The notes beneath the pieces were generated by a model. It ran no database searches. It saw only the letters and a program-made list of their open reading frames with translations, and was not told the DNA's origin. Below are positions 3,107 through 21,100 of a stretch of 64,000 nt of DNA, in pieces. Source of the stretch: Ignavibacteriota bacterium. GTDB taxonomy: Bacteria > Bacteroidota > Ignavibacteria > UBA10030. Made by a program: the position numbers and the translations under genes. The stretch is from the NCBI GenBank assembly GCA_963769605.1, contig CAVYML010000009.1, positions 1,419,041 to 1,483,040 of the forward strand, written 5' to 3'. The stretch's first letter is position 1; each line of letters starts with the position of its first letter.

Positions 3107-3152
3107 AAACCTTGGCAAGGGTTGGGAACCTTGCCAAGGTTTGTCCTTTTAG
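3107..3152 (+). terminator. Terminator-like hairpin: AACCTTGGCAAGG-GTTGGG-AACCTTGCCAAGGTT followed by TTTGTCCTTTT
   Basis: A perfect 13-bp inverted repeat followed by a T-rich tract, lying in the 650-bp intergenic region upstream of fic. The stem is related to the CCTTGG core of the island-boundary repeats. Confidence 0.35.
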
Positions 3153-3347: not shown

Positions 3348-4484
3348 ATGGATATAAAAGACTACAAAGCCGGCAGATACCAGCAGCAAAAACATTATCA
3401 GGCATTCTTTCCGGCAGCAATCAATTCAACCTGGACATGGTCCGATCCGAAAATAAATACGCTCCTCTCCGAAGCAAATCATAAATTAGGCGAATTGAAT
3501 GCATATTCGCTTCGCATTCCGGATGTCGAATATTTTATAGAGATGCACGTCATAAAAGAAGCAACCACTTCCAGCAAGATCGAAGGAACACAAACGGAGA
3601 TCGGCGATGTATTGCTGGCAAGGAAAGATATCGATCCTGAAAAAAGGGACGATTGGCAGGAAGTGCAGAATTATGTAAAAGCAATGAATTATGCCATTGC
3701 AAAACTCAAATCGCTGCCTCTCTCAACCCGCTTGCTCAAAGAAACGCATAAAATTCTGCTCAGTAAAGGGCGCGGAATTACGAAGCAGCCGGGTGAATAT
3801 CGCACAAGTCAGAATTGGATCGGCGGTGCGACGATCCAGGACGCCTTCTTTGTTCCTCCTCCATTTGGAGAGATTCATAGTCTGATGGGCGATTTGGAAA
3901 ACTTTCTTCATAATGATGGAATTGATGTACCGCAATTAATCAAAATTGCGATTGCGCATTATCAATTCGAAACGATCCATCCGTTCCTGGACGGTAATGG
4001 ACGAGTCGGCCGCCTGATGATAGCATTGTATCTTGTCAGCGAAGGATTGCTTGCAAAACCGACATTGTATTTATCGGATTATTTTGAAAAGAATAGAATC
4101 CTCTATTACGATAAACTTTCTATTGCGCGCACATCAAACGACCTTGCACAATGGATAAAGTTTTTCCTTATTGCGGTTATTGAGACATCGAAGAATGGAG
4201 TCAGAACATTTGAACGCATCGTCCGGCTCCGTGAGAAAATCGAAGGGGAAAAGATTATAACACTTGGCAGAAAACTCCCGAAAGCGAAAGAGCTTATGAA
4301 TGTTTTGTACAGCCGGCCAAGTCTCACGGCAGCGGAGGCGGCAGAATGTGTAAAAGTGACGCCGGCTACCGCAAATGCGCTCATCCGAGATTTTGTCAAG
4401 CTGTCGATTTTAATTGAAGTAACAGGCGGAAAGAGAAACAGAAGATTTATTTTTGAGGATTATATTAATCTATTCCAACAATGA
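3348..4484 (+). CDS. fic: Fic family protein (AMPylation/adenylyltransferase fold), class II with an N-terminal inhibitory helix
   Basis: Canonical Fic motif HPFLDGNGRVGRL. The inhibitory-helix motif (S/T)xxxE(G/N) is present upstream as SSKIEG. The length of about 378 aa fits Fic_N + Fic + C-terminal wHTH. Confidence 0.9.
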   Translation: MDIKDYKAGRYQQQKHYQAFFPAAINSTWTWSDPKINTLLSEANHKLGELNAYSLRIPDVEYFIEMHVIKEATTSSKIEGTQTEIGDVLLARKDIDPEKRDDWQEVQNYVKAMNYAIAKLKSLPLSTRLLKETHKILLSKGRGITKQPGEYRTSQNWIGGATIQDAFFVPPPFGEIHSLMGDLENFLHNDGIDVPQLIKIAIAHYQFETIHPFLDGNGRVGRLMIALYLVSEGLLAKPTLYLSDYFEKNRILYYDKLSIARTSNDLAQWIKFFLIAVIETSKNGVRTFERIVRLREKIEGEKIITLGRKLPKAKELMNVLYSRPSLTAAEAAECVKVTPATANALIRDFVKLSILIEVTGGKRNRRFIFEDYINLFQQ

Positions 4485-4563: not shown

Positions 4564-7347
4564 ATGGTCAATCAAACACCTGAACAACGAGCGCGCGATT
4601 TAATCGATAAGGCATTGGAGCAATCCAGCTGGATTGTTCAGGATAAGAAAAACATCAATCTCAATGCCGGCGCAGGCATTGCCGTTCGGGAATATCAGAC
4701 CGATGCGGGTCCGGCGGATTATATTTTGTTCGCGGAAAAGAAACCTGTCGGCGTTATTGAAGCAAAGCAAACAAATGAAGGCCTCCATCTCACAGCACAC
4801 GAGCCGCAGACACAGAAATACGCCACAGCAAAACTGAAGCACCTCGATAACCAACCTCTGGTATTCTGCTATGAAAGCACGGGAGATGTAACGCGATTTA
4901 CCGATTACCGCGATCCAAAGCCGCGTTCAAGGGAAGTCTTTACATTCCATAAGCCGGAAACGTTTATTGAGTGGCTGAAGCAGGATGCGTCCTTGCGAGG
5001 ACGGCTGCAGACAATCCCTGCGCTTCCAACAGAACATTTACGCGATTGCCAGATACGCGCTATTAATAACCTTGAGGGATCGTTCAAAGAGAACCGCCCT
5101 CGCGCGTTGATACAAATGGCGACGGGTTCGGGCAAAACATTTACGGCTATTACATCGGTATACCGATTGCTGAAATATGCCGGAGCAAAACGGATTCTTT
5201 TCCTGGTGGATACGAAAAACCTCGGCGAGCAAGCGGAACAGGAATTCATGGCCTATCAGCCAAACGATGACAACCGCAGGTTCATGGAGTTGTATTCCAT
5301 TCAGCGATTGAAAAGCAACTATGTCCCGACCGATACGCATGTCTGCATTTGCACGATTCAGCGCTTGTATTCGATACTCAAAGGAACGGAATTGGACGAA
5401 GCGGCAGAAGAGGAAAATCCGAACGAGCGGAAATACCAGCCGAAGGATCCTGTGCCGGTTGCCTATAATGCAAAAGTGCCCGTCGAGTTCTTCGATTTCA
5501 TTATCATCGATGAATGCCATAGAAGCATTTACAACCTCTGGAAACAGGTACTGGATTATTTCGATTCATTCCTCATCGGACTGACAGCAACACCGGACAA
5601 CCGGACATTCGGTTTCTTCAACCAGAATATCGTTAGCGAATACACACACGAAGAAGCTGTGACCGACGGCGTGAATGTAGGAAGCGACGTCTTTACCATC
5701 GAAACGAAAATCACAAAACAGGGAAGCAGCATCCAGAAGGGACAATATGTCGATAAGCGGGAACGGCTGACGCGCAAGAAGCGATGGGAACAGACGGATG
5801 AAGATGTTGTCTATACCGGCCAGCAATTAGACAATGATGTTGTAAATCCCAGCCAGATACGCCTTATCATCAAAACATTTAAAGAATATCTTCCTGAAAT
5901 ATTTCCTGATCGCCATGATGAACGCGGGGAATTTGAAGTCCCCAAGACACTCGTCTTTGCAAAATCTGATTCGCATGCAGACGATATTATACAAATCATC
6001 AGGGAGGAATTTGCAGAGGAAAATAATTTCTGCCAGAAGATTACATATACGGCAGATAACCCAAAAACCACGCTGTCGTCTTTTCGAGGAGATTATAATC
6101 CTCGCATTGCCGTCACGGTGGATATGATTGCGACGGGAACAGATGTGCGTCCGCTGGAATGTCTGCTCTTTATGCGGGACGTGAAAAGCCGCAATTACTT
6201 TGAGCAGATGAAGGGGCGCGGCACACGAACGTTGTCACTGGATGATCTCCATAAGGTATCCAAAACAGCAAAGTGCACGAAGGATCATTTTGTTATTGTG
6301 GATGCCATCGGCGTAACGAAGAGCATTAAGACCGATATTCATCCGCTGGAACGAAAGCCCACCGTGCCGCTGAAAGATTTGCTGGAATCTGTTGCCGTGG
6401 GTGTGCGGGAAGAAGATTTATTCACATCGCTTGCCAACCGGCTTGTGCGATTAGATAGACAAATTACAGAGCCGGAGCGAAAGCTCTTTGTGGAAAAAGC
6501 GAACGGCAAGACTCCCGCACATGCAGCAAAAGAGCTTCTCAATGCTTATAACCCGGATACGCTTGAGCAGATCAAAGCAGAGATTGCCGGGAAGATGAAG
6601 AATGCATCAGCATCTGAACAACATTCAGCATTCATCACTTATCATTCCTCATTGCTCGAAGAGGCGGCGAGGATTTTTACCGGCGTGCTGAATACGTACA
6701 TCGAGAATGTGCGCAAAATACACGAACAGATTATCGATACGTTGAACCGTGATACGCTTGCCGGAGCAGGATGGCAAGCGGAGAACAAATCAAAAGCGGA
6801 AGCATTAATAAAGGAATTTACCGCGTGGATGGAATCGCATAAAGATGAGATTACTGCACTGCAGATATTTTATAACCAGCTATACCGCAGGCGTGAGCTG
6901 ACGTATGCAATGATATTAGACCTGTGCCAGAAACTGAAATTGGATGCGCCCTCGCTTGCGCCTCTGCACGTCTGGCAGGCGTATGAAATATTGGATACAA
7001 AGACTCAGCACGGCACACCAAAGAGCGAACTGACTGCACTGGTAGCGCTGATACGAACTGTATGCGGCATTAATAAGACATTAACATTGTATGATAAAAC
7101 GGTGGACAGGAATTTCCAGCAATGGATATTGAAAAAGAATGCGGGACAGCATAACCGGTTCACCGACGAGCAGATGCAATGGCTCAGAATGATTAAAGAG
7201 CATGTAGCGATGTCATTCCATATTGAGAAAGACGACTTTGAACTCGATCCGTTTAAGGCCGTGGGCGGATTGGGAAAAATGTGGCAGCTCTTTGGAGAGC
7301 AGATGGATCCGATATTGAATGAGTTGAATGAAAGTCTGGTAGCATGA
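4564..7347 (+). CDS. hsdR: Type I restriction enzyme R subunit (HsdR)
   Basis: The N-terminus is HsdR_N-like (GPADYILFAEKKPVGVIEAKQT). SF2 helicase motifs are MATGSGKTFTAI (motif I), IIIDECHRS (DEAH box) and TGTDVRPL. The C-terminus is EcoEI_R_C-like. 927 aa. Confidence 0.9.
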   Translation: MVNQTPEQRARDLIDKALEQSSWIVQDKKNINLNAGAGIAVREYQTDAGPADYILFAEKKPVGVIEAKQTNEGLHLTAHEPQTQKYATAKLKHLDNQPLVFCYESTGDVTRFTDYRDPKPRSREVFTFHKPETFIEWLKQDASLRGRLQTIPALPTEHLRDCQIRAINNLEGSFKENRPRALIQMATGSGKTFTAITSVYRLLKYAGAKRILFLVDTKNLGEQAEQEFMAYQPNDDNRRFMELYSIQRLKSNYVPTDTHVCICTIQRLYSILKGTELDEAAEEENPNERKYQPKDPVPVAYNAKVPVEFFDFIIIDECHRSIYNLWKQVLDYFDSFLIGLTATPDNRTFGFFNQNIVSEYTHEEAVTDGVNVGSDVFTIETKITKQGSSIQKGQYVDKRERLTRKKRWEQTDEDVVYTGQQLDNDVVNPSQIRLIIKTFKEYLPEIFPDRHDERGEFEVPKTLVFAKSDSHADDIIQIIREEFAEENNFCQKITYTADNPKTTLSSFRGDYNPRIAVTVDMIATGTDVRPLECLLFMRDVKSRNYFEQMKGRGTRTLSLDDLHKVSKTAKCTKDHFVIVDAIGVTKSIKTDIHPLERKPTVPLKDLLESVAVGVREEDLFTSLANRLVRLDRQITEPERKLFVEKANGKTPAHAAKELLNAYNPDTLEQIKAEIAGKMKNASASEQHSAFITYHSSLLEEAARIFTGVLNTYIENVRKIHEQIIDTLNRDTLAGAGWQAENKSKAEALIKEFTAWMESHKDEITALQIFYNQLYRRRELTYAMILDLCQKLKLDAPSLAPLHVWQAYEILDTKTQHGTPKSELTALVALIRTVCGINKTLTLYDKTVDRNFQQWILKKNAGQHNRFTDEQMQWLRMIKEHVAMSFHIEKDDFELDPFKAVGGLGKMWQLFGEQMDPILNELNESLVA

Positions 7348-8471
7348 TGCAGAAAGAATCACAGCAAATCATGATGCAGCATTCGGAAGTAAAGATAAGA
7401 TTGCTAAAACTTTATCTTGAACGATATTTGACTGTCTTAAGCATGTCGAAATACTTCGGTGATATCTATATTTATGATTTGTTCTGTGGTGAGGGAATTT
7501 ATGAAAATGGTGGCAAAGGCAGTCCAATAATTATTTTAGAGACGATTAAACCGATCTATTTCGTGAGTAAAGCAAAAGGAAATGATAAAGATAAATTTAA
7601 TTGTCTGTTTAATGATATAGATTCTGATAAAATAGAAAAATTGAGAGAAGAAATTGCCAACAGGCATCTCTATTATCCAGAAATGGGAAGGTTGGATATT
7701 CGACAAATGGATTACAAGTATCTCCTTCCCTTGGTAAATGAAGAAATAAATACATTCAAGAAGGAAAAGGCATTTGTTTTTATTGATCCCTATGGATACA
7801 AAGATATTAAGGTCTCGGATATTATGAATTTATTAAGCTCTAAAAAGTCTGAAGTGCTTTTATTTCTACCGACACAGTTTATGTTTAGATTTGAAACGAA
7901 GGGAACTCCTGTATGCTTAGTCGATTTTATCAGCGAGCTCATGCCGCAGGAAAAATGGCCAACCAGTAATACCGGAATCAATTTTATAGAAACCTTAACA
8001 GAAGCATTTCGGAAGAAGCTAGGTCCCGATTATTTTACAGACTCCTTTATTATTACACGGGAATTAAATCAATTCTTTTGTCTATTCTTTTTTACAGGCC
8101 ATATTTATGGATTTGATAGGATGCTTGATGCTAAATGGGAGATAGATGCTGAAGAAGGCCGAGGATGGTGCTATCAAACAGGCGATTCATTGTTCGATGA
8201 TGGATGTAAGGTGGCGAATACTCGTAAATTGGAGAACAAGTTGTTAGAGACTTTATCAAAAGGAGAATGCACCAATGGTGAATTATATCGATTTACACTA
8301 CAAAATGGTCATTTGCCTTGCCATTCAAACGAAATATTGACAAACCTTCAAAAGGATGGAAGGTTGGTCGTAACAAAGGCGGATGGAACAATGGCGAGGA
8401 AAGCCGCTTTTTATTTAAGCTACAAGTTATATAAAAATGAACCAGACAAAATTAAAATAAGGTTAAAATAG
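7344..8471 (+). CDS. Three-Cys-motif partner protein (TcmP family), function unknown
   Basis: The N-terminal pattern (KIRLLKLYLERYL...DLFCGEGIYENGGKGSPII) and the ~375 aa size match my recollection of the TcmP family. A Gp37/Gp68 gene follows immediately, which is the defining pairing. The start overlaps the hsdR stop (ATGA). Confidence 0.6.
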   Translation: MMQKESQQIMMQHSEVKIRLLKLYLERYLTVLSMSKYFGDIYIYDLFCGEGIYENGGKGSPIIILETIKPIYFVSKAKGNDKDKFNCLFNDIDSDKIEKLREEIANRHLYYPEMGRLDIRQMDYKYLLPLVNEEINTFKKEKAFVFIDPYGYKDIKVSDIMNLLSSKKSEVLLFLPTQFMFRFETKGTPVCLVDFISELMPQEKWPTSNTGINFIETLTEAFRKKLGPDYFTDSFIITRELNQFFCLFFFTGHIYGFDRMLDAKWEIDAEEGRGWCYQTGDSLFDDGCKVANTRKLENKLLETLSKGECTNGELYRFTLQNGHLPCHSNEILTNLQKDGRLVVTKADGTMARKAAFYLSYKLYKNEPDKIKIRLK

Positions 8472-8472
8472 C

Positions 8473-9204
8473 ATGTCAAAAACTAGCATTGAATGGACGG
8501 AAATGACATGGAATCCTATAACAGGATGCAGCAAAATATCGACTGGTTGTAAATTCTGTTATGCTGAAGTAATGTCAAAAAGATTAAAAGCAATGGGAGT
8601 AGAGAAGTACTCGAATGCTTTTAAATTGACCTTGCATGAAAGCGATTTAAATATTCCATTTGAGTGGAAAAAACCTAAAATCGTTTTTGTCAATTCAATG
8701 AGTGATTTATTTCACAAGGATGTGCCGGTTGCGTACATTCAAAGAATATTTCGAGTTATGAAAGAAAACCCTCAACATGTATTTCAAATATTAACGAAGC
8801 GAGCAGATATATTGTTGAAATATGATAAAAAGAGACTGCTTGAATGGACGCATAATATTTGGATGGGAGTTACTGTCGAAAATGATAAGGTGATGAATAG
8901 AGTTGACATGCTAAAAGCAACAAAAGCGCGAATAAAATTTCTTAGTTGTGAACCGTTGTTGAGCGATCTTCCTAGATTAAATTTAAAAGGCATAGATTGG
9001 GTTATTGTGGGAGGAGAAAGTGGAAGATCGCCAAGACCAATGAAAAAGGAATGGGTCAAGAACATTAAAAATGAATGTAAAAGATCTGATGTCGCATTTT
9101 TCTTCAAGCAATGGGGTGGAACAAATCGAAAAAAGACCGGAAGGATGCTCGATGGGAGAATGTATAGTGAGATGCCAGATTTTCAAACGGTGAATGAAAA
9201 TTAA
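8473..9204 (+). CDS. Phage Gp37/Gp68 family protein (DUF5131), three-Cys-motif protein
   Basis: The N-terminus is SIEWTEMTWNPITGCSKISTGCKFCYAE, the characteristic TKIEWTD-TWNP-TGC...GC-FCY start of PF07505. There is a 1-nt gap after tcmP. Confidence 0.75.
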   Translation: MSKTSIEWTEMTWNPITGCSKISTGCKFCYAEVMSKRLKAMGVEKYSNAFKLTLHESDLNIPFEWKKPKIVFVNSMSDLFHKDVPVAYIQRIFRVMKENPQHVFQILTKRADILLKYDKKRLLEWTHNIWMGVTVENDKVMNRVDMLKATKARIKFLSCEPLLSDLPRLNLKGIDWVIVGGESGRSPRPMKKEWVKNIKNECKRSDVAFFFKQWGGTNRKKTGRMLDGRMYSEMPDFQTVNEN

Positions 9205-9215
9205 TTTTTTAAATA

Positions 9216-10430
9216 GTGGATATAATGAATAGTAATCTGCCGAAACAGTGGAAGGTCTTAAAGCTTGGATATCTATGCAAAACAGCGACTGGTGGGACTC
9301 CTAGAAGAAATAATCCGAATTATTACACTGGCAAAATTCCTTGGGTAAAGTCTGGTGAACTTGATTATAATACGATTTTAGACACAGAGGAAAAGATAAC
9401 CAAAGATGCGATAGAGAACTCCAATGCAAAGCTATTTCCCAAAGGGTCAATACTCATAGCACTATATGGAGCTACCATCGGAAAACTGGCTATTCTCGGA
9501 ATAAATGCTACGACAAACCAAGCAATATGCGCTATATATAAAAGCGCATCTATAGAATCGAAATACCTATTTCATTTTCTTTTCTCGAAGAAACAATTCC
9601 TTGTCAAACAAAGCTTTGGCGGGGCACAACCGAATATAAGCCAAACGATACTAAGAAATCTGGATGTTCCTCTTCCACCACTTCCAGAACAACACCGCAT
9701 CGTTGCCAAAATAGAAGAACTCATTAGTGATTTGGATAAAGGAGTCGAGAGCTTAAAGACCGCACAGCAGCAGCTCAAGACCTACCGCCAGTCCGTGCTC
9801 AAATGGGCGTTTGAAGGCCACTTCACAAATAAGAACATGAAGGAAGGCGAATTGCCGGAGGGATGGAAGTGGGTGAAATTTGGTGACGTTCATGATATTA
9901 AATCAAACCTCGTAGATTCGTTAAAATATTTAGACATGCCCCATATTGCCCCTGATAATATATCCAAAGGAATTGCAAAATTATTAGGTTATAGAACTAT
10001 CAGAGAAGATAAAGTGATCAGTGCAAATCATAAATTTTTTAAAGGTCAAATAGTATATTCAAAAATTCGCCCTAATCTGACAAAAGTTATTATCGCTCCT
10101 ATCGATGGATTATGTAGTGCCGATATGTATCCGATTGATTCCAAGTATAATAATCGATATACGCTTTATTATATGTTGACTAATTCATTTGTTAAGATTG
10201 CATCAAATACTGAATCGCGAACTATTCTTCCAAAAATTAATCAAAAGGGATTAAATGCAATTCCTTTTCCTCTTTGTCCACAAGAAGAGCAAAACCAGAT
10301 TGTCCAAGAAATCGAAAGTCGTTTAAGTGTCTGCGATAAATTAGAAGAGACCATCACAGCAAACTTGCAGCAATGCGAGTCGCTGCGGCAAAGCATATTG
10401 AAGAAGGCGTTTGAAGGAAGGTTAACATAA
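9216..10430 (+). CDS. hsdS: Type I restriction-modification specificity subunit (HsdS)
   Basis: Two target-recognition domains are separated by the conserved central repeat (LPPLPEQHRIVAKIEELISDLDKG...VLKWAFEG) and the C-terminal repeat (CPQEEQNQIVQEIESRLSVCDKLEE...ILKKAFEGRL). The N-terminus is KLGYLCKTATGGTPRRNNPNYY. Confidence 0.9.
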   Translation: MDIMNSNLPKQWKVLKLGYLCKTATGGTPRRNNPNYYTGKIPWVKSGELDYNTILDTEEKITKDAIENSNAKLFPKGSILIALYGATIGKLAILGINATTNQAICAIYKSASIESKYLFHFLFSKKQFLVKQSFGGAQPNISQTILRNLDVPLPPLPEQHRIVAKIEELISDLDKGVESLKTAQQQLKTYRQSVLKWAFEGHFTNKNMKEGELPEGWKWVKFGDVHDIKSNLVDSLKYLDMPHIAPDNISKGIAKLLGYRTIREDKVISANHKFFKGQIVYSKIRPNLTKVIIAPIDGLCSADMYPIDSKYNNRYTLYYMLTNSFVKIASNTESRTILPKINQKGLNAIPFPLCPQEEQNQIVQEIESRLSVCDKLEETITANLQQCESLRQSILKKAFEGRLT

Positions 10431-10447
10431 ATAAAGGATAAAATACT

Positions 10448-12229
10448 ATGAATATAGCACCTCATAGATTAAGCATAGCTCAATTATTTGCGAGTAATAA
10501 CGAACAATTTATTGTTCCATCGTATCAGCGAAGATATGCATGGGGATACAATCAAACAGCAGCACTGTTTGATGATATAGCAATGTTAAAAAAAGAAGAC
10601 GGACATTTATTAGGAATGATTATATTGCATTGCGAAACGCATAGCGGAGATCTTAACAGACCGGAATTAGTTGATGGCCAACAACGGCTGACAACCCTCG
10701 CAATACTATTAAAAGCAATGCAATCGAGGTTCTTAGAATTAGAGAATATGGACAAAGTCTCTGATATAGAAAAAATGCTTACTTGTCATGGTCTCGATGA
10801 GAAAAAACTCCCAAAGTTGGAACTTGGTGATCTTGATCATGATGATTTAAACACACTACTTTCAAATGACCGGACAAAGGAATTCACTAACCATAATATT
10901 AAAGAAGCATACGATAATTTTAAGAATAGGATTGATGTTTTAAAAAACGATGAGTTACAAAAATATTTTTTCTCTTTAACAAATGTGGCAGTTATTATTC
11001 GCCTTGACGTGGAAAAAGCGCAAGATGCATATAAACTTTTTGAAACAATCAATAACCGTGGATTAAGACTATCTCCAACTGATATCATTAAAAATTTCCT
11101 CCTTGGACATGCAGCTAAACTTGAACCAGAGATATTCGTAAAAACGAAATCTTTATGGTCATCGATAATTACGAATCTGGACGGTATTGATTCGGACGAT
11201 TTCCTTAGGCAGTATCTCTGCTCATTATTAGTAAGGAAAGTAAGTTCATCTCAAATGGTGTATGAATTCAAAAAATATTATTTCAAACATATAAAAGATG
11301 CTGATAAACTTGGCGAATTTAGCTATTACGTTGATGAAAAAGTGCTAAATGATGAAGAGGAAACGAATGGGGAAGAATTAACGTCCGAACAAGAAATAGA
11401 TAACGGAAAAGATTCCCAAATAACTATTATAGAGTTCCTACAGAAAATCGAAGAGATTTCAAAAGTTTATAGAAAGATATCGTTAGAAGAATATGAAGAA
11501 GAAAAAGTAAATAGGCATATCAAATATTTAAACAAGATACTTTCAAGACCTACCTATATATTCCTTATGCATTTTTTGCAAAAAAACTTATCTGAAAGCA
11601 TAAAAGTCGAAGTTCTAAAAGTCCTTGAAGCATTTATGCTGCGCCGCCACATTTGCGAAAAAAGGACTGGCGAACTAGACGATATATTCTCAAAAACAAT
11701 GAAGATTATTGAATCAACAGATATTGTAGGTGATTTGCGCAAACAACTTGCTCCCGATGTTCCATCAGATGAAGCATTTAAAAATAGCTTTCCATTGCAT
11801 GTGTTTAAAGGGAAGTTAATCGATCGAGCAAAATATGTACTAGAGCAAATAGAATATCACGTAAATGGAAATACGGGAGAGCTGATCGTCGCCAGCAGTT
11901 CAGAGGTAGAGCTCGAACATGTGATACCACAAACAATATCAACTAAAAGATCCAAGGAAGAATATGGAGATTGGGAAGAATATCTAGGTCCTAATAGTTT
12001 ACAGCTTCATGAGAAATTTATTAACCTCATTGGAAATATGACACTATTGGCAGATGCATTAAACATTCAGGCCTATAACAACCCGTTTGCAAAGAAGAAG
12101 AACAGCTATAAAAAATCAAATTTTGTAATTACAAATGAGTTAGCAAAATTATCTAATTTTAGGTTTCCCAATGTGTCTAAGAGGGGTCAAGCATTAGCGG
12201 AAAAAGCAACAAAGATTTGGAAGGTTTAA
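10448..12229 (+). CDS. DUF262/DUF1524 protein; GmrSD-like modification-dependent (type IV) restriction endonuclease family
   Basis: The N-terminal DUF262 domain has the DGQQR motif (VDGQQRLTTL). The C-terminal DUF1524/His-Me finger-like region has ELEHVIPQ. 593 aa. Confidence 0.75.
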   Translation: MNIAPHRLSIAQLFASNNEQFIVPSYQRRYAWGYNQTAALFDDIAMLKKEDGHLLGMIILHCETHSGDLNRPELVDGQQRLTTLAILLKAMQSRFLELENMDKVSDIEKMLTCHGLDEKKLPKLELGDLDHDDLNTLLSNDRTKEFTNHNIKEAYDNFKNRIDVLKNDELQKYFFSLTNVAVIIRLDVEKAQDAYKLFETINNRGLRLSPTDIIKNFLLGHAAKLEPEIFVKTKSLWSSIITNLDGIDSDDFLRQYLCSLLVRKVSSSQMVYEFKKYYFKHIKDADKLGEFSYYVDEKVLNDEEETNGEELTSEQEIDNGKDSQITIIEFLQKIEEISKVYRKISLEEYEEEKVNRHIKYLNKILSRPTYIFLMHFLQKNLSESIKVEVLKVLEAFMLRRHICEKRTGELDDIFSKTMKIIESTDIVGDLRKQLAPDVPSDEAFKNSFPLHVFKGKLIDRAKYVLEQIEYHVNGNTGELIVASSSEVELEHVIPQTISTKRSKEEYGDWEEYLGPNSLQLHEKFINLIGNMTLLADALNIQAYNNPFAKKKNSYKKSNFVITNELAKLSNFRFPNVSKRGQALAEKATKIWKV

Positions 12230-12234
12230 TGTGA

Positions 12235-12572
12235 GCGACGAAACAATATCAACTATATAGCATTGTCTCCAAAATCTGGTGGTTCTGTAATACACTCCAT
12301 AAAACAAGGAAACGTCATTGTGAGAAATGAGGACATCGACGATGGACGAATGACGAAGCAATCTGATAATCAATGAAGAGATTGCCACGCAACCTAATGG
12401 TCGCTTGCAATGACGGAGCAAGAGAGAGATTGCTTCGCTGCGCTTGCAATGACGAAGTAAGTCGGCATCGTCCTGACGATAGAAAGAAAATATAAGCAAC
12501 GAAACAACATCAACCAATATCATCATCTCCAAAGTCTGGTCGTTTTGCAATACACTCCGCGATGACGGTGTA
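12235..12572. repeat. Structured intergenic region with two extra copies of the hsdM 5' end (12235-12300 degenerate; 12495-12570 near-identical) and internal inverted repeats (CGAAGCAATCT / AGATTGCTTCG; GCAATGACG x3)
   Basis: Direct comparison with 14121..14192, the real hsdM start. The 12516-12570 copy translates to IIISKVWSFCNTLRDDGV. HsdM begins MSVNNSTNSIISKVWSFCNTLRDDGV. Confidence 0.85.
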
Positions 12573-12583
12573 GAAATTAAGCA

Positions 12584-14119
12584 ATGAGTATCGAACAGGT
12601 AAAAAAGTTGTTAAAACAAAAGGAAAGTGTTCGGCTGGAATTCAAGGAGGCCGAAAACGCTTTGCCGTCTAATTTATTCGAATCAATCTGTTCAATGCTC
12701 AATCACGACGGCGGTGATATTCTCTTGGGCGTAAATAATCATGGAGGAGTCGTGGGCGTTAATCCTGCCGCGGTTGATCGGTTGAAGACAGATATTGTAA
12801 ATCTTTCCAATAATCCTCAAAAGCTCGACCCGCCGAATATATTGTTTCCTCTGGTTTATACCGCTGGTGGAAAAAAGGTTATTCATATTCAAATACCCGC
12901 GAGTTCGCAGGTTCATAAGTCCGACCACGATGTATTCGATAGGAGCAATGATGGCGATTATCGCGTTAAGCAGCCGCAGCAAATAGCAGAGATTTATAAT
13001 CGCAAACGCTTACATTATACAGAAGGAATTATTTATCCCTATGTAAAGTTTTCCGATTTTAAGGCGGATCTTTTCCCGAAAGTCCGTAATCTAATAAAAA
13101 GCAATGAAGCCAACCATCCATGGCTTTCTTTGGCCGATCAAGAAATGTTGGAAAAGGCAGGATTGTGGAAAAAGGATTATCAATCCGGAAAAGAAGGATA
13201 TACGCTTGCCGCGGCATTGTTGTTTGGAAAAGATGAAGTCATTCAGCAGATTGTGCCTCATTATAAAACCGATGCCATACTTCGAATAAAAAATAAAGCT
13301 CGATATGATGATCGGGAATATGTCCAGACAAATCTTATCGAATCGTATGAAAAGCTCATGGCGTTTGTTGCCAAGCATTTGCCGGATAAATTCTATAAAG
13401 AGGGGAATCAACGCAGGAGCCTTCGCACTGCCATATTTCATGAAATAGTCTCCAATATCATCGTTCATCGTGAATATACCAATGCCTATCCGGCGACGAT
13501 GATTATCCACCCGGATCGTGTTGAGACCGAGAACGCCAATAACCCAAACGGTCATGGACCGATTATTCTGGGAACATTTACACCTTTTCCTAAAAATCCG
13601 ACGATTGCAAAATTCTTTATTCAATTGGGACTTGTCGAAGAATTGGGATCGGGTTTTATCAATGTGAATCGTCTTATTAAAGAATATGGCGACAAGGGTT
13701 CGCCTCAATTTATTGAAGGAAATACATTCAAAATGGTGATTCCGATAAGCCAAGCACTGATGATGAAACATGCCGGTATTGCCATTCCTATTCCTGGCGA
13801 TGGCGATGAAAGTAAGGGTGCAATTGAGGGAATAAGTGATGCTGTAAATGATGCTGTAAATGATGCTGTAAATGATGCTGTAAATGATGCTGTAAGTGAT
13901 GCTGTAAAAAATCGTCTTAGGGAAGAAGTAATAAGGATCCATACAAACGGCAAGGTGCGACTACCGGAGATTATCGAAATATTTAAAATAAAAAGAGCAA
14001 CAGCACAGAGAGACATGACAACCTTAAAAGAAGCAGGAATTGTCGAGTTTAAGGGATCGCCTAAAAATGGCGGCTATTATCTAACAAAAATGGCAACAAA
14101 GAAGCTGCAAAAATTATGA
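12584..14119 (+). CDS. AlbA_2 (divergent AAA / Schlafen-like DNA-binding) domain protein with a C-terminal ATPase-like region and wHTH; putative defence-associated regulator or sensor
   Basis: The N-terminus (KESVRLEFKEAENALPSNLFESICSMLNHDGGDILLGV) is typical of the PF04326 AlbA_2 domain. The C-terminal segment is HTH-like. It contains an in-frame DAVN x6 repeat. Its stop overlaps the hsdM start. Confidence 0.65.
   Translation: MSIEQVKKLLKQKESVRLEFKEAENALPSNLFESICSMLNHDGGDILLGVNNHGGVVGVNPAAVDRLKTDIVNLSNNPQKLDPPNILFPLVYTAGGKKVIHIQIPASSQVHKSDHDVFDRSNDGDYRVKQPQQIAEIYNRKRLHYTEGIIYPYVKFSDFKADLFPKVRNLIKSNEANHPWLSLADQEMLEKAGLWKKDYQSGKEGYTLAAALLFGKDEVIQQIVPHYKTDAILRIKNKARYDDREYVQTNLIESYEKLMAFVAKHLPDKFYKEGNQRRSLRTAIFHEIVSNIIVHREYTNAYPATMIIHPDRVETENANNPNGHGPIILGTFTPFPKNPTIAKFFIQLGLVEELGSGFINVNRLIKEYGDKGSPQFIEGNTFKMVIPISQALMMKHAGIAIPIPGDGDESKGAIEGISDAVNDAVNDAVNDAVNDAVSDAVKNRLREEVIRIHTNGKVRLPEIIEIFKIKRATAQRDMTTLKEAGIVEFKGSPKNGGYYLTKMATKKLQKL
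13837..13908 (+). repeat. Perfect 12-bp tandem repeat GATGCTGTAAAT, 4 copies plus 2 variants, encoding DAVN-DAVN-DAVN-DAVN-DAVS-DAVK
   Basis: Read directly from the sequence. It is in-frame inside CDS 12584..14119. Confidence 0.95.
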
Positions 14120-15612
14120 GTGTGAACAATTCAACAAACAGCATCATCTCCAAAGTCTGGTCGTTTTGCAACACACTCCGCGATGACGGCGTGGGGTACG
14201 GCGATTACTTAGAACAGCTTACATATCTGCTCTTTCTCAAAATGGCAGACGAGCTTGGCAAGCCGCCATATAACAAAAAGCTGCCTATCCCCAAAGAGTA
14301 TAACTGGGAAAGCTTAAAGAGCAAAAATGGCTCCGAGCTGGAAGCGCAGTATACAACCCTACTGCGCGAGCTTGGCAAACAAAAAGGAATGCTCGGGCAA
14401 ATCTTTACCAAGAGCCAGAATAAAATCCAGGACCCGGCAAAACTCTTTAAGCTCATCGATTTGATCGATAAAGAGCAATGGAATGTAATGGGCGCCGATG
14501 TGAAAGGCGAAATCTACGAAGGGCTGTTAGAGAAAAATGCGGAAGATACCAAGAGCGGGGCGGGACAGTATTTTACACCGCGCGCGCTTATCAAAGTAAT
14601 GGTGGAATGTCTGCGACCCGAACCGAACAAGAAGATCATCGATCCGGCATGCGGTACCGGCGGCTTCTTCTTAACGGCATACGATTACATACTTGCCAAT
14701 CACGAATTGGATAAAGGACAAAAGACATTCCTGAAGTATAAGACTTTCTTTGGCAATGAGATCGTTGCCAATACGCGCCGGCTATGCCTGATGAATCTCT
14801 TTTTGCATAACATCGGCGACATCGAAAGCGAATCGACCATCTCTCCGAACGACTCGCTTATTGCCGATAACAGCGAACGCTACGATTATGTGCTGACAAA
14901 TCCTCCGTTTGGTAAAAAGAGCAGCATGACATTTACGAACGAAGAGGGAGAGCAGGAAAAAGAAGATTTAACCTATAACCGTCAGGACTTTTGGGCAACG
15001 ACGAGCAACAAACAGCTCAACTTTGTGCAGCATATCCATACTATTTTAAAGACAACCGGATTAGCGGCGGTTGTTGTGCCGGATAACGTACTGTTTGAAG
15101 GAGGCGCGGGAGAGACTGTCCGGAAGAAATTATTGGAAACGACAGACCTGCATACCATTTTGCGTCTGCCGACAGGAATTTTTTATGCAAATGGCGTGAA
15201 GGCAAATGTGATATTCTTTGATGCGAAACCTGCCTCCAAAGAACCGTGGACAAAGGAACTCTGGTATTACGATTACAGAACCAATGTGCATCACACGCTC
15301 AAGAAAAGCACATTGAAACAAAGCGACCTGAAAGAATTTGTCGAATGCTACAATCCAAAAAACCCTAACAAGCGGAAAGAGTTATACAACGAGAAAACGA
15401 ACCCCGAAGGCCGCTGGCGGAAATTTACATACGAAGAAATCATCAGCAGAGACAAGACCAGCTTAGACATTACGTGGTTAAAAGATAAATCCTTAGCCGA
15501 TCTGGACAACCTGCCCGATCCTGATGTCCTTGCTGCGGACATAGTCGAGAATCTGGAAGCGGGGCTGGAGAGTTTTAAAGAAATCATAGCATCATTGAAT
15601 GGGAAAGGGTAA
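14116..15612 (+). CDS. hsdM: Type I restriction-modification DNA methyltransferase subunit (HsdM), N6-adenine
   Basis: Motif I is IDPACGTGGFF and motif IV is LTNPPFGKK. The HsdM_N-like N-terminus is SKVWSFCNTLRDDGVGYGDYLEQLTYLLFLKM. 498 aa. Confidence 0.92.
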   Translation: MSVNNSTNSIISKVWSFCNTLRDDGVGYGDYLEQLTYLLFLKMADELGKPPYNKKLPIPKEYNWESLKSKNGSELEAQYTTLLRELGKQKGMLGQIFTKSQNKIQDPAKLFKLIDLIDKEQWNVMGADVKGEIYEGLLEKNAEDTKSGAGQYFTPRALIKVMVECLRPEPNKKIIDPACGTGGFFLTAYDYILANHELDKGQKTFLKYKTFFGNEIVANTRRLCLMNLFLHNIGDIESESTISPNDSLIADNSERYDYVLTNPPFGKKSSMTFTNEEGEQEKEDLTYNRQDFWATTSNKQLNFVQHIHTILKTTGLAAVVVPDNVLFEGGAGETVRKKLLETTDLHTILRLPTGIFYANGVKANVIFFDAKPASKEPWTKELWYYDYRTNVHHTLKKSTLKQSDLKEFVECYNPKNPNKRKELYNEKTNPEGRWRKFTYEEIISRDKTSLDITWLKDKSLADLDNLPDPDVLAADIVENLEAGLESFKEIIASLNGKG

Positions 15613-17584: not shown

Positions 17585-18184
17585 TTATTTTTTGGATGAT
17601 CCGTTTTCCTCCAAAAGAGGCACTACTAATATGGATGCAAATGTTTTAGCAATTAATTTTGAAAATTCAATGACAAGTTTTTTATTATATTGCCTACGTG
17701 CAAAATATAGCGTCTCGCCTATATTATTTGAAAGAATTATTTGGATCACAGCAAAAATGCCTGAATGTCCTGAAGATATCACATCAGCACGAATACCTTT
17801 AATATTTGTTGAATTGATAATCACTTGATTGATACCGCCAAAATATTTCTTATATCCTAGAGTAAGAAAATCATGTTCAACATTGATATTCATCGGATGT
17901 TTAGTTACAGTCCATCTATAAAGGAGAAAAATGATAAGAAATAATAAAATTAAATATAGATAAACAATTTTAGGTGCGGCAACCAATTGTCTAAAAACGA
18001 TAAACGTTATAATAAGCAAAACAAACATTGCTTTTATATCATATCGTCTGTGAAGTCTGAGATAACTATCGCCTTGACTTACTATTTTGTACGGGGCTAT
18101 AGCTTTTTTTAAGTCAATATTGTCAATCATTTTTCCTCCAACTATGAGATTATTATAGCAATAAATCTCTATTTTAATAATCAT
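17585..18184 (-). CDS. Small integral membrane protein, candidate immunity protein for the upstream RHS toxin
   Basis: 199 aa (or about 182 aa from the internal MIDNIDLK start). There are 2-3 hydrophobic TM segments. Its start overlaps the RHS gene stop by about 10 nt. This is the classic position for a polymorphic-toxin immunity gene. Confidence 0.5.
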   Translation of the reverse strand: MIIKIEIYCYNNLIVGGKMIDNIDLKKAIAPYKIVSQGDSYLRLHRRYDIKAMFVLLIITFIVFRQLVAAPKIVYLYLILLFLIIFLLYRWTVTKHPMNINVEHDFLTLGYKKYFGGINQVIINSTNIKGIRADVISSGHSGIFAVIQIILSNNIGETLYFARRQYNKKLVIEFSKLIAKTFASILVVPLLEENGSSKK

Positions 18185-21100
18185 CTAGTTTCCAAATAAC
18201 TTTTGCACCAGCATAGATTGCCATGGTTACATTCATCGTATAAACAAGTTTTTGAAATTTTGGACTTATTACAGAAACATGGGCAAGTGATCCCACTAAT
18301 AAACCAGCACCAATCGCTTCGGAGAGATCACATCCTGCCTCATTAAATCCTAATGTCTTTGCAAGCGCCTGAATGCCGCTGCTCTCTACTTCGTGCGCAT
18401 TCTCCTTTTGTGAATATCTAGCAAAATTATCTGTTCCAGCACCAATCCCAAACATATCTAATCCCGCAGAAATAATATCCGTATAGCTAATAGCTTTTCC
18501 ACCCGAGGCTATTGCTTTATCTAGTATAGCAAGCAAATCTATAACAGCTGCGAAAATAGTAGCTGTGGCTACAGCCTGGCCCTTATTAATACTAAATCCA
18601 AGGTTAATTCCGAAACCAAGATCAGCAACCCCACCATTTATATCAATCATATTCACAGGATTATTACTTGTATAGCAATAGTGATTCGAAGATCCAGATC
18701 CAAATAAAAGCGGATCTTTTCTTGTCCATCTCCCAGTAATTGCATCATAATCTCTTGCTCCAAATCTTACCAATCCCGTTTGCATGTCGTACAATCCTCC
18801 GGCAAATCCCATGGGCACAATTTGTTGACCGATGAAGTTAGTCACATTGCCGAATTCATCATAATCCATCTGTTGAACAACCTGGCCAGTCGATGAATTA
18901 ATTACTTGCCGGACGCTGCCAAGCTGGTCTGTCACAATTCGATATGCAATACCGGCTTTTAAGATGTACTCAGGCGCATTTTGCTTTGTCGCATAAACAA
19001 AATGACTTATGACATTTCCCATACTGTCAACTTCTGCGCTGATTCTTAATTCATCGCTATATAACCATCGTTGAGTAATTTGTCCATTCACCTTCCGTAT
19101 GATACGCCGTCCAGCCCCATCACTGATATACTCAATGCGCGAAGAATTTGGAAGAACCACGGAGAGAAGATTTCCCATCGCATCATAATCGTAACGAGTG
19201 GTATCCGTTCCCGAAATCTTCATCTTTAAATCGCCGTTTTGAGAATAGAAGTATTGAGCATTACCATAATGAAGAAGGCGATCCTGTGCATCATAAAATC
19301 CGCTGTCAACTTGAATGAGAGCAGCATGTGCAATTCGATTTCCATTTGGATCGTAGGAATATGTCGATACTATCGTATCGTTTTTCGATACCTGCAGAAG
19401 CTGTCCCTTTGCATCGTAGAGATAAGTGTATTTTGTTTTTATGCCAGAAACGGAATCGATCTTCTCAGTGATCCTTCCAAGACTGTCCCTTGAGTATCGA
19501 GCCTGATATAGTATGGTTGATCCATAAAGTGTTTGCTGACTTGCAGTTTCTCCGAAAGCATTATAAGTATAATTTGTCACTACACTCCCCAGAGTGTCGC
19601 ATAGTAATAGGTTATTTGCAGGACCCGATTTTAATTTGAGTATTCCTGCAGATATAAGCAAACCATCCTTATCATAAGCAAAATTGATGCTGTCCTTATT
19701 ATTGATGGTCTCTGACAAAATTTCCATATCGTTGTTGTATCTAACCTTTACACTTCCATTGATAGAACCAGTCCAGTGAACATTCTTTGGCAATTGTCCA
19801 TCATACTGATATAATAAAGAGTCTCCATTGGGAGAGATTACTCCAGTGACCAATCCTTTTACTGTGTCATAGAGGAAGGTCATTGTACCTCGATTGTACG
19901 AAATGCATTTCGGCTGTCCAGCTAACGATCCCTTACCGCCATAGAAGAAATCCATATTCAAACTGTCGGGTCTGGCAATTCGCGTGATCTCTTTATCATA
20001 ATTGTAGGATTTTGTCGTTGCTCTCTCGCTGTCACCTGCAAACGGTGGAATATATTTTTGCTCAAGGTCTACAGCCGTGTACTCAAAGTTATGTGACGGT
20101 TTAGAAGGAGGAATAATCGAAAGCATATTTCCATTATGGTCGTACGTGAATGATACTTCCGAAGAATCCGGCAAAATAGTTTCTACCAATCTATCTCCGG
20201 CATCATAAAAGAACTGCGTATTGTGCCCATAAGGATCCGCAACCTTTGCTTGCCTGCCGAGCGAATCGTAGGCATAAGTCGTTATCCTACCGCCCTGTGA
20301 AGTTTGAATCTTCCTTCCTCTTATATCGTACTTATACATTGTTGGTGCAAGTCCCGCTGTGGAATCTTTGATATCTTTTCCTTTTGCATCATAGAACGAA
20401 AAAGTTTTTCTTCCTTCTGCGCTGGTCTTTGTCAGCATCCGTGCATTGCCGTCCCATTGCGTTGTGTATGTCTTTCCATTGACCTGAACATTATCCGTTA
20501 AACCGGTTACACTGTTGCCGGTCATTTGCGTAATGGTGCGGGTCTGGTCCACGGTGGATTGCAGACCGCCCGGAGTATTTACAGTAACATTCTGCAAAGG
20601 TGTCTGCATGCCGAAACGTGGATCAGGCGTTTGCTGATCTGGCGTGTTTGTACCATTTGGAACCGTTGTTGTCGATGTACCGTCGGTACCAATGGTCGTT
20701 ATCGTTTTAAGTCCGTTCGCATCGGTATTGGTCAACACGCGGGAGCCATCGTGCAGCTTATCCACGCGGTATATCGTCTTCTTTCCCATTGCCGTTAATG
20801 AAGTAACCGTATATCCGACGCTGTCATACTGCCGCGATAGATTTGTATAACCACCGGCAGGGTCCATATCTTTTGTCAAATAGCCGAGCGTATCATAAGA
20901 ATAATTGTATGTATTGCCGCGTGCATCGGTTTTACTCGTCATCAATCCACCGGTGGTGTATGTGAATATATTCGATTCATACGCAGGATTTGTTGCCTGC
21001 AATAAATATCCGAGCGTATCAAGCTGCAAATCCGTGCGAACTCCATACGGCGATATAATAGCCGTAGCCATTCCGGCTATGTCCCGATCGATAGTTATAA

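Follow-up and report, generated by a model that had tools for sequence, protein, structure and literature searches.

A tcmP-DUF5131 gene pair in a type I restriction-modification operon of an Ignavibacteriota bacterium, a further instance of the anti-phage candidate PDC-M30

Genes embedded in type I restriction-modification (R-M), BREX and DISARM operons were the source of the defence candidate PDC-M30 (Payne et al. 2024 preprint, bioRxiv 10.1101/2024.01.29.577857). The same preprint describes PrrC as being found almost only inside type I R-M loci (Payne et al. 2024, 10.1101/2024.01.29.577857). In the literature that we searched, PDC-M30 appeared in prevalence tables only, with a prevalence correlation reported for P. 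aeruginosa, and no functional study of the DUF5131 (Gp37/Gp68) or TcmP family was found. This agrees with an earlier note on this DNA, according to which neither family has an established function. For RlmJ, the 23S rRNA m6A2030 methyltransferase with which TcmP is compared below, the roles of motif IV and of K18 and D164 are described, and essential residues were defined by mutagenesis (PMC3814359).

In the window, a stretch of 64,000 nucleotides from an Ignavibacteriota bacterium, tcmP and a DUF5131 gene lie between hsdR and hsdS (Table 1). The two PDC-M30 models held in PADLOC-DB v2 matched adjacent genes on the same strand, 1 nt apart: PDC-M30A (PDLC04566) matched TcmP (1e-145, residues 1-374 of 375) and PDC-M30B (PDLC04569) matched DUF5131 (2.5e-124, residues 1-239 of 243). 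The gene order, the adjacency and the type I R-M-embedded setting are the same, with no difference of substance. The candidate PDC-M41 has the DUF5131 partner in common, but its TcmP-like partner is shorter and matched weakly here (1e-9). Judging by these profile matches, the pair is another instance of the anti-phage candidate PDC-M30 and not a new discovery. The earlier note had proposed an undescribed system; PADLOC-DB v2 already lists this one, built by the same reasoning from type I R-M embedding. What is new here is the DUF5131 motifs and core resembling spore photoproduct lyase (SPL), the fold-level annotation and the residues to mutate, together with evidence for the autonomy of the pair rather than R-M dependence and a second recurrent context, SOS/translesion genes.

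Table 1. Genes of the operon and sequence features of the two proteins, in positions of the window.
Feature	Position	Strand	Remarks
hsdR	4564..7347	+	EcoAI/EcoEI-like type I restriction subunit; ResIII and EcoEI_R_C; Pfam and NCBIfam matches
tcmP	7344..8471	+	375 aa
TcmP putative motif I-like SAM-binding loop, D45-L-F-C-G-E-G51	7476..7496	+	directly after strand beta1 (model)
TcmP motif IV-like D148-P-Y-G-Y152	7785..7799	+	after strand beta4
TcmP C-terminal winged helix-turn-helix (GMT-like wHTH)	8190..8387	+	PF22560, residues 283-348; helices/strands 294-345 in model
DUF5131 / Gp37-Gp68 family gene	8473..9204	+	243 aa; predicted small radical-SAM-superfamily enzyme
DUF5131 cysteine triad C19-x6-C26-x2-C29 (CKFCYA)	8527..8559	+	presumed [4Fe-4S] site; codons read directly
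DUF5131 G180-G181-E182 (GGE, within VGGESG)	9010..9018	+	invariant in the same homologue sets as the triad
DUF5131 fourth invariant cysteine C202	9076-9078	+	conserved in the same homologue sets
hsdS	9216..10430	+	type I specificity subunit; PF01420 3.4e-41; PADLOC Specificity_I 5.5e-88
GmrSD-type enzyme (DUF262 and DUF1524)	10448..12229	+	PF03235 and PF07510; PADLOC HEC-06 1.9e-77
AlbA_2/Schlafen and HATPase_c_4 protein	12584..14119	+	PF04326 1.1e-14
hsdM	14116..15612	+	type I methyltransferase subunit; PF02384 1.9e-69 and PF12161; PADLOC MTase_I 7e-197

The host operon encodes HsdR, HsdS and HsdM on one strand, and each exceeds its Pfam cut-offs. The junctions of the pair, read directly from the sequence, are as tight as had been claimed. 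The TGA stop of hsdR (7345-7347) shares an ATGA (7344-7347) with the ATG of tcmP at 7344; another ATG, at 7347, is an alternative tcmP start. The gene ends at 8471, leaving 1 nt to the ATG of the DUF5131 gene at 8473. The claimed distance of 11 nt from the end of DUF5131 (9204) to hsdS holds for a GTG start at 9216, but the true start is probably the ATG at 9225, 20 nt on, because HsdS has 401 aa in an independent gene call and the PADLOC profile alignment begins at residue 4. The same 375/243-aa pair was found in independent gene calls on four other contigs with identical DUF5131. The account of a pair nested in the type I operon and tightly coupled to it between hsdR and hsdS stands, but it had overlooked the GmrSD and AlbA_2/Schlafen genes between hsdS and hsdM, the latter of which overlaps the start of hsdM with its end. 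As these two are also nested, the operon carries several passengers besides tcmP-DUF5131. A scan for sigma-70 promoters and for terminators, uninformative for a Bacteroidota genome, gave fewer promoter-like sites than shuffled sequences did and, from hsdR to hsdM, no terminator that was convincing.

Both family assignments proposed earlier were borne out by HMM searches, TcmP by TIGR04474 (1.4e-42; 146.4 bits against a cut-off of 53) and DUF5131 by PF07505 over the whole profile (1.6e-97; 326 bits against a gathering cut-off of 28.9; profile positions 1-243).

In its structural model, TcmP has a helix at the N-terminus, followed by a Rossmann core like that of SAM methyltransferases (residues ~41-270) and, at the C-terminus, by a winged helix (283-348), which is presumed to be a nucleic-acid-binding domain. 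The SAM-binding fold for which a structure check had been suggested is thus present in the model: a seven-strand Rossmann fold with a Gly-rich motif I loop after beta1 and an acidic residue after beta2, as in class I SAM-dependent methyltransferases. Among 128 representatives (28-52% identity), D45 and G51 were conserved at 100% and G49 at 97%, and in the motif IV-like segment D148 at 99%, P149 at 100%, G151 at 95% and Y152 at 99%. H13 (7380-7382) and K17 (7392-7394), an invariant residue in helix 1, were also conserved. The residues conserved in at least 90% of these representatives (D45xxxG49xG51, N90-D91, D148-P149-x-G151-Y152, H13 and K17) occupy the positions of SAM-methyltransferase motifs.

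The DPYGY motif appears to sit where RlmJ and the DNA m6A methyltransferases have their catalytic DPPY. When D148 and K17 are matched to D164 and K18 of RlmJ, by eye and not by superposition, the conserved residues of TcmP appear to parallel the mutagenesis-defined essential residues of RlmJ. Sequence homology was not detectable when TcmP profiles were aligned with E. coli RlmJ by hhalign (probability <1%), so the link to RlmJ rests on the fold and on the order of motifs judged by eye. Sequence searches of the PDB gave chance matches only, for both proteins and for the TcmP profile. There are differences from RlmJ as well. Motif IV of RlmJ is DPP(Y/F), and its inserted helical subdomain after motif I is absent from TcmP, in which a conserved GSP follows 7 residues past motif I where about 50 residues intervene in RlmJ. 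TcmP adds the C-terminal wHTH and always has a radical SAM enzyme as its partner. Because motif IV is DPYGY and not DPPY, catalysis by TcmP stays putative, and this counts against the explanation that we prefer below. The evidence from fold and motifs nevertheless supports the suggestion of the earlier note that the pair has a nucleic-acid-modifying function.

DUF5131 is listed in the radical SAM superfamily. Its C19, C26 and C29 did not vary among 40 close homologues, nor among homologues from phages and bacteria with identities as low as 36%, and the CX6CX2C triad, the GGE and C202 are invariant from Bacteroidota to actinophages. In radical SAM enzymes, the GGE motif contacts SAM. The triad spacing departs from the canonical CX3CX2C; an aromatic residue precedes the last cysteine. 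A partial TIM-barrel core accompanies the GGE-type motif, and in a low-confidence model this core was closest to SPL and, with it, to PFL-activase and viperin. The model is poor (pLDDT 63, and below 50 in the N-terminal 73 residues, which include the cluster loop) because the alignment input was too similar (at least 70% identity). SPL, PFL-activase and viperin have CX3CX2C, whereas DUF5131 has the longer spacing, only 243 aa and a dedicated methyltransferase-like partner. On these motifs and this model, DUF5131 is presumed to be a small radical-SAM enzyme with a cluster site. A role as a glycyl-radical-type activase of TcmP, acting through the conserved G272-R-G274-W loop, was considered and dropped, as the motif and the fold are unlike those of glycyl radical enzymes.

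In a set of 80 loci from 80 genomes, 69 had an intact tcmP-DUF5131 pair, with a gap of -20 to +15 nt (median 2). The pairing is not due to chance. For neighbourhoods we used 51 well-flanked loci. The pair was nested in a type I operon in 7-8 of them (~15%) and had any R-M gene within three genes in 12 (~24%), leaving ~76-85% of pairs without an R-M neighbour. The nested pairs all lay between R and S. They came from two type I families, only 25-31% identical to each other, and stood in two gene orders, R-pair-S-M and M-S-pair-R (L051 and L060). Elsewhere, a type ISP R-M enzyme overlaps tcmP (Leptospira p74 and L078). HsdR or HsdS made up 13 of 130 immediate neighbours, far above the ~0.1% expected from typical gene content. 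The neighbourhood check that had been called for is therefore positive for enrichment beside R-M genes, but most pairs are found without them. Constant adjacency to hsdR was rejected because other genes intervene in four loci (L004, L006, L016 and L061); the pair adjoins hsdS more constantly.

These observations bear on the idea, raised in the earlier note by analogy with PrrC and RloC, that the ATP-dependent restriction complex gates the pair or cooperates with it. The pair might be a guard triggered by phage proteins that block HsdR, HsdM or HsdS, as PrrC is, or an additional activity that modifies or demodifies the same m6A-based mark of self and non-self. The ATGA overlap with hsdR, which allows translational coupling, the distance of at most 20 nt to hsdS, the exact hsdR-hsdS placement, the overlapping type ISP enzyme and the neighbour enrichment all argue for it, as does the m6A-methyltransferase-like character of TcmP, given that type I and type ISP enzymes use m6A. 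PrrC and RloC share this position in type I operons, with hsdS on one side and hsdR on the other. The prr locus is mirrored by the gene order of the two M-S-pair-R loci. However, near-exclusive embedding is a feature of PrrC, whereas the pair is embedded in a minority of its loci and has standalone copies, and the ABC-ATPase-like N-domain and C-terminal anticodon nuclease of PrrC/RloC are absent from it (Pfam, NCBIfam and PADLOC). Furthermore, a Fic gene, a HigA-like gene or small ORFs fill the same R-S gap in sister operons, which suggests that the gap is an insertion hot spot.

Composition also argues against a restriction-gated accessory. The GC3 of the pair is 0.33-0.35, compared with 0.52 for hsdR, which is like the host, and 0.56 for hsdM; the pair is foreign in composition relative to these two genes. 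The GC3 of hsdS (0.35) and of the GmrSD gene (0.29) is also low. TcmP proteins of R-M-nested loci fall into at least six clades, whereas the HsdR (58-67% identical) and HsdM (72-77%) of the same loci are uniformly related; nested TcmP appears to have undergone replacement or rapid divergence. The hsdR-hsdS interval would then be an exchange hot spot, and the whole inner block of tcmP, DUF5131, hsdS, GmrSD and AlbA_2, flanked by conserved hsdR and hsdM, seems to have come in by exchange. Taking both sides together, we consider gating by the restriction complex quite unlikely.

In about 10 of the 51 well-flanked loci (~20%), the pair follows a PA0069-family radical SAM gene (NF033668, 4e-140) and LigT at a distance of 25-42 nt, divergent from umuD-umuC. 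P. aeruginosa has 15 SOS genes, of which PA0069 is one. In another four lineages (L026, L053, L054 and L012), the pair has Y-family polymerase or S24 peptidase genes as neighbours. The pair could accordingly be an SOS-induced module for damage repair or tolerance, in which DUF5131 would reverse a base lesion or adduct by SPL-like radical chemistry and TcmP would be a lesion-recognizing or base-flipping subunit, its presence in defence islands reflecting mobility and not immunity. The SOS-type context is kept across genera of Chitinophagaceae as one clade and looks vertical, which fits repair better than defence. However, a context found mostly in one clade implies few independent events, and umuDC and S24 genes are themselves frequent on mobile elements. 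Repair would also leave the R-M nesting and the adjacency to a prophage immunity repressor unexplained. We regard this explanation as unlikely.

About 57% of the well-flanked loci had neither R-M nor SOS neighbours. Some pairs adjoin carboxyltransferase, RNase E/G or amidase genes at ordinary chromosomal sites; others are beside integrases or IS elements on plasmids, or on conjugative plasmids and ICE-like elements by helicase and transfer genes. In one prophage, the pair lies between the integrase and the immunity repressor, in the lysogeny module. Still others lie in defence islands. The statement that the pair recurs near defence genes was confirmed, its neighbours elsewhere including HamA, KAP NTPase, AAA_15/21, Fic, HD and type ISP genes; a PADLOC scan of immediate neighbours did not yield a usable count of defence genes, as it was swamped with HsdS models redundant with one another. 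The statement that Gp37/Gp68 homologues occur in phages was likewise correct: DUF5131 was present in 178 phage records and TcmP in 5.

The copies in phages, on plasmids and ICE-like elements and beside integrases and IS elements would fit counter-defence by a mobile element, in which the pair would hypermodify the DNA of its carrier (phage, ICE or plasmid) against recipient restriction, and the copy in a chromosomal R-M operon would be left over from the passage of such elements. The two enzymes are both of modification type, and the pair lacks a nuclease or any other obvious effector. However, tcmP has the same orientation as the immunity repressor gene in the single phage that we studied closely, which suggests lysogenic and not lytic or entry expression, most phages lack TcmP, and many chromosomal copies lack mobile-element hallmarks. 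We see only a slight chance that this explanation is correct.

Our preferred explanation, for which we judge the chances to be about even, is that the two enzymes form an autonomous module, mobile by horizontal transfer, which modifies nucleic acids chemically by means of SAM; here this instance of PDC-M30 is carried as a co-expressed passenger of a type I R-M operon. Its autonomy and mobility are supported by the loci free of R-M and SOS genes, the ordinary chromosomal sites, the integrase, IS and plasmid sites and the prophage module. Also in favour of this explanation are the profile matches to PDC-M30, the conserved motifs of both proteins, the tight pairing, the foreign GC3, the six or more clades of nested TcmP and the defence-type neighbours. 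The winged helix of TcmP would bind the target, and the RlmJ-like pocket would bind SAM and capture a flipped-out base, most likely adenine. DUF5131, which is small and has no nucleic-acid-binding domain of its own, would form a 5'-deoxyadenosyl radical, by means of its [4Fe-4S] cluster and another SAM, for a step on the same base or nucleotide, the two proteins acting as putative physical partners. The modified or demodified base may then mark or disable DNA or RNA when hosts, phages and mobile elements are in conflict. As most phages have DUF5131 without TcmP, DUF5131 can work without it, which weakens the step in which TcmP targets DUF5131. Other points against this explanation are the lack of a nuclease or similarly obvious effector, the undetected sequence homology of TcmP to RlmJ, the poor DUF5131 model and the SOS-type context that looks vertical in Chitinophagaceae. 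That the pair recurs in exactly the R-S interval of two type I families unrelated to each other, and also adjoins type ISP enzymes, hints at a closer functional tie to restriction enzymes than the word passenger implies.

The Dnd/Ssp phosphorothioation and Dpd 7-deazaguanine systems are likewise mobile multi-enzyme cassettes in defence islands that modify DNA, as the pair is proposed to do. Some systems of this type use Fe-S or radical SAM chemistry. We found no homology between their components and the pair, with which no cognate restriction partner is conserved. A bolder reading, very unlikely in our view, would make the pair a new kind of radical-SAM chemistry, for immunity or repair, that targets DNA itself and is a functional partner of the translocating type I and type ISP restriction enzymes. 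In one version, TcmP would flip adenine or N6-methyladenine and the DUF5131 radical would convert, remove or damage the base, so that the protective methylation of a phage would be erased, the host mark hypermodified or the strand broken.

Because the module is already catalogued as PDC-M30, its value for this window is modest. It is widespread, with 3,537 TcmP clusters at 50% identity in addition to the phage genomes that carry DUF5131, and the SOS/translesion context offers an alternative, testable function. To our knowledge, no characterised defence system uses radical SAM chemistry together with base-flipping methyltransferase-like chemistry. Should the pair prove to work in defence or repair, it would contribute a radical SAM enzyme acting on nucleic acids with a base-flipping methyltransferase-like partner.

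The tcmP gene and the neighboring gene for a DUF5131 (Gp37/Gp68) protein lie between hsdR and hsdS, in a run of seven co-oriented genes at 4564-15612. The hsdR stop codon is overlapped by the tcmP start codon in the ATGA at 7344-7347, and a single nucleotide separates tcmP from the DUF5131 gene. In the external gene calls for four contigs that carry an identical DUF5131 gene, the same proteins of 375 and 243 amino acids were found, together with an HsdS of 401 amino acids starting 20 nt past the DUF5131 gene. The overlap, the 1-nt gap and the matching gene calls therefore confirm what the earlier note had observed: the nesting in a type I R-M operon is real, and the gene pair itself is conserved. 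A scan for terminators from hsdR to hsdM found none that was convincing.

Genes of the type I R-M operon and the gene preceding it, in window coordinates
Feature	Position	Strand	Remark
SoFic-type Fic/DOC gene	3348-4484	+	79 nt upstream of hsdR; PADLOC SoFic, 2.7e-116
hsdR	4564-7347	+	
tcmP	7344-8471	+	
DUF5131 gene	8473-9204	+	
hsdS	9216 or 9225-10430	+	
GmrSD-type gene (DUF262/DUF1524)	10448-12229	+	between hsdS and hsdM; matches PADLOC HEC-06
AlbA_2/Schlafen + HATPase_c_4 gene	12584-14119	+	between hsdS and hsdM
hsdM	14116-15612	+	

The window lies on a chromosome and belongs to a metagenome-assembled genome of the Bacteroidota. Its DUF5131 protein is 100% identical to one encoded on a 1.69-Mb contig, and an ABC transporter, lon and dnaX are found in the flanks. 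A perfect hairpin with a 14-bp stem (AAACCTTGGCAAGG...CCTTGCCAAGGTTT, 3107-3142) sits on the upstream border of the low-GC island and could either terminate the preceding ABC-transporter operon or mark an island boundary. Directly downstream of the defence island is an ORF of 2,889 amino acids (18174-26843, minus strand); three small ORFs come after it on that strand, and one of them belongs to the RDD family.

The proteins were assigned to families. TcmP matched TIGR04474 above the cut-off (1.4e-42), with a PF22560 winged helix at its C-terminus, and its partner matched PF07505 (1.6e-97). Both also gave end-to-end matches in PADLOC-DB v2, TcmP to PDC-M30A (1e-145) and DUF5131 to PDC-M30B (2.5e-124). 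The PDC set originates from Payne et al. (bioRxiv 10.1101/2024.01.29.577857), who gathered genes nested within type I R-M, BREX and DISARM operons and curated 145 "phage defence candidates"; of the systems they confirmed by experiment, all seven came from a separate, Hma-embedded candidate set. The pair was thus already in a public annotation tool when it was proposed as an undescribed system, and the reasoning behind that proposal repeats a published approach, since the PDC set was built from R-M-embedded genes. We searched the literature for a functional study of either family and found none; PDC-M30 was mentioned only in P. aeruginosa prevalence tables. The pair is a further instance of a catalogued, uncharacterised candidate.

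The operon holds at least three nested passengers, not one. HEC-06, matched by the GmrSD-type gene, was placed among GmrSD-like phage defences by Payne et al. (bioRxiv 10.1101/2024.01.29.577857). AlbA_2 homologues occupy the same spot in sister operons (for example, locus L004 of our comparison set). Fic genes were seen within sister R-M operons (L016) as well as close to the pair at other loci (L015, L037 and L056). Base composition at third codon positions (GC3) was host-like in hsdR (0.52), hsdM (0.56) and lon (0.53) but 0.29-0.37 in the five genes from tcmP to AlbA_2 (7344-14119). This sharp break suggests replacement of the operon interior en bloc, probably through recombination between the two outer genes, hsdR and hsdM, which are conserved. 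In sister operons the gap between hsdR and hsdS was also filled by Fic, a HigA-like gene or small ORFs, and we infer that this interval is a hot spot collecting passengers.

A pattern scan with one genome per species yielded 80 loci, most of them in Bacteroidota because the patterns were derived from the subfamily of the window. The pair was intact in 69 of these, the spacing of the two genes ranging from -20 to +15 nt (median 2). Gene context was counted in the 51 loci where each side had two or more genes. The pair lay between hsdR and hsdS in 7-8 of them, a type I or type ISP gene was within three genes in 12, SOS or translesion genes were neighbors in 10, and about 29 had neither R-M nor SOS/translesion neighbors. 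The commonest immediate neighbors were Radical_SAM (8), HsdS (7) and HsdR-type (5-6) genes, followed by many singletons including housekeeping genes; second neighbors included HamA, KAP NTPase, AAA_15/21, Fic, HD, N6_Mtase and LigT.

The R-M association is real but not obligatory. Two nested architectures were found: R-pair-S-(variable)-M in an EcoAI/EcoEI-like family (HsdR 58-67% and HsdM 72-77% identical to those of the window), and M-S-pair-R (L051 and L060) in another type I family, where identity is just 25-31%. In addition, tcmP was overlapped by an upstream type ISP single-polypeptide R-M enzyme in Leptospira biflexa plasmid p74 (L085, 1007-7907) and in one genome of the Chthoniobacterales (L078, 581-5814), so that a second class of translocating restriction enzyme accompanies the pair in two unrelated phyla. 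In a neighbor-joining tree, R-M-nested TcmPs were spread over at least six clades and intermingled with those that are not nested. The earlier note had likened the pair to PrrC and RloC as an accessory gated by the R-M system. PrrC is described as almost exclusively embedded (Payne et al., bioRxiv 10.1101/2024.01.29.577857), whereas the pair is nested in only a minority of loci (7-8/51), a distribution that does not support such gating. We consider an R-M-coupled accessory unlikely.

A second recurrent context was seen in Chitinophagaceae (L029, L033, L039, L040, L044, L045, L073 and truncated relatives), where the pair follows, in a conserved block, a radical SAM gene of the PA0069 family (NF033668, 4e-140) and a gene for a LigT-like 2H phosphoesterase. 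The block is divergent from umuD-umuC, and with these two genes it covers about 7,000-11,900 in each of the seven named loci; its gaps are 25-42 nt between the radical SAM gene and tcmP and 2-7 nt between tcmP and the DUF5131 gene. It may be a four-gene SOS-linked operon with two different radical SAM enzymes. PA0069 counts among the 15 P. aeruginosa SOS genes (bioRxiv 10.1101/2022.03.14.484287, citing Cirz et al. 2006). Genes for a Y-family polymerase or an S24 peptidase also adjoin the pair in Sphingobacterium, a Bacteroidia MAG, Kapaibacterium and Bdellovibrio. This recurrent neighborhood is the best evidence that the pair might be an SOS-linked repair module, but in the tree most of the signal comes from one clade, and we regard that explanation as doubtful.

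TcmP is a large family (3,537 clusters at 50% identity). In a confident AlphaFold2 model from 48 homologues (pLDDT 86), a long helix at the N-terminus precedes a Rossmann core of seven strands (approximately 41-270), and residues 275-375 form a winged helix. Among 128 full-length representatives, 28-52% identical to the window protein, the positions conserved in at least 90% were H13, K17, Y24, L25, Y28, D45, G49, G51, Y53, G59, S60, N90, D91, F146, D148, P149, G151, Y152, E170, P176, R182, F183, G256, W265, G272 and N311. Mapped on the model, D45xxxG49xG51 comes after beta1 as motif I, N90-D91 after beta2 at the acidic position that binds ribose, and D148-P-x-G-Y after beta4 as motif IV. The pattern is collinear with that of RlmJ (H13-A-D-V-L-K18, D40xxxGxGxY, GSP and I-D164-P-P-Y, in RlmJ numbering), where K18 and D164 are essential by mutagenesis (PMC3814359). 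This conservation and collinearity thus point to strong purifying selection on active-site-type residues, consistent with SAM binding and base capture. The model resembles an RlmJ-type enzyme at the fold level, yet TcmP appears to lie outside the RlmJ family because profile comparison of the two detected no match, motif IV is DPYGY rather than DPPY, and the helical subdomain of RlmJ is absent.

DUF5131 is more conserved, with a mean column identity of 82% among its 40 nearest homologues from Bacteroidota and Verrucomicrobiota. Invariant in homologues from bacteria and phages, with identities as low as 36%, were C19-x6-C26-x2-C29-Y-A, NSxSD, LTKR, EPL, G180-G181-E182-S-G, C202 and FKQWG; C159 was not conserved. 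RadicalSAM.org places the family in Megacluster-5-2, alongside spore photoproduct lyase at 5-3. Our reading of the sequence is that DUF5131 is a minimal radical SAM enzyme whose cluster motif is non-canonical and which has one additional, presumably essential cysteine. The protein lacks a nucleic-acid-binding domain of its own. When the window was compared with loci L001-L078, DUF5131 was 64-74% identical but TcmP only 42-70%. TcmP diverges much faster, in its rate more like HsdS, and the asymmetry may reflect diversifying target recognition in TcmP.

Both families also occur on mobile elements. Phage records with DUF5131 numbered 178 and were mainly those of temperate actinophages and of Burkholderia phages; phage TcmP was limited to five Gordonia phage records. 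Gordonia phage ThankyouJordi (L081, 4983-6850) has the two genes in convergent orientation, DUF5131 as gp41 and a TcmP-like "methyltransferase" as gp42. They are bounded by the integrase gene (gp38) and that of the immunity repressor (gp43), and gp42 comes after the repressor gene and is co-oriented with it. In actinophages this region usually houses host-protective genes expressed from the prophage. Plasmid-borne TcmP was seen in at least six phyla and in haloarchaea, beside integrases, IS elements, helicases and conjugation genes. That the pair serves mobile elements as anti-restriction is, in our judgment, very unlikely. On a P. aeruginosa conjugative plasmid (L086, 3755-7272), two TcmP-annotated genes flank a frameshift-split DUF5131 frame (tblastn pieces 5184-5663 and 5660-5902) where the plasmid annotation has no gene; the stretch adjoins a DEAD/DEAH helicase gene and ICE transfer genes.

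We give roughly an even chance to the best-supported reading, that the pair is an autonomous, mobile, two-enzyme SAM-dependent module for nucleic-acid modification, co-expressed with the type I system and mechanistically independent of it. TcmP would be the subunit that does the targeting, captures the base and possibly methylates, with the radical step falling to DUF5131. The window itself adds insight at the level of annotation only; the mechanism of the pair, if shown, would be new.
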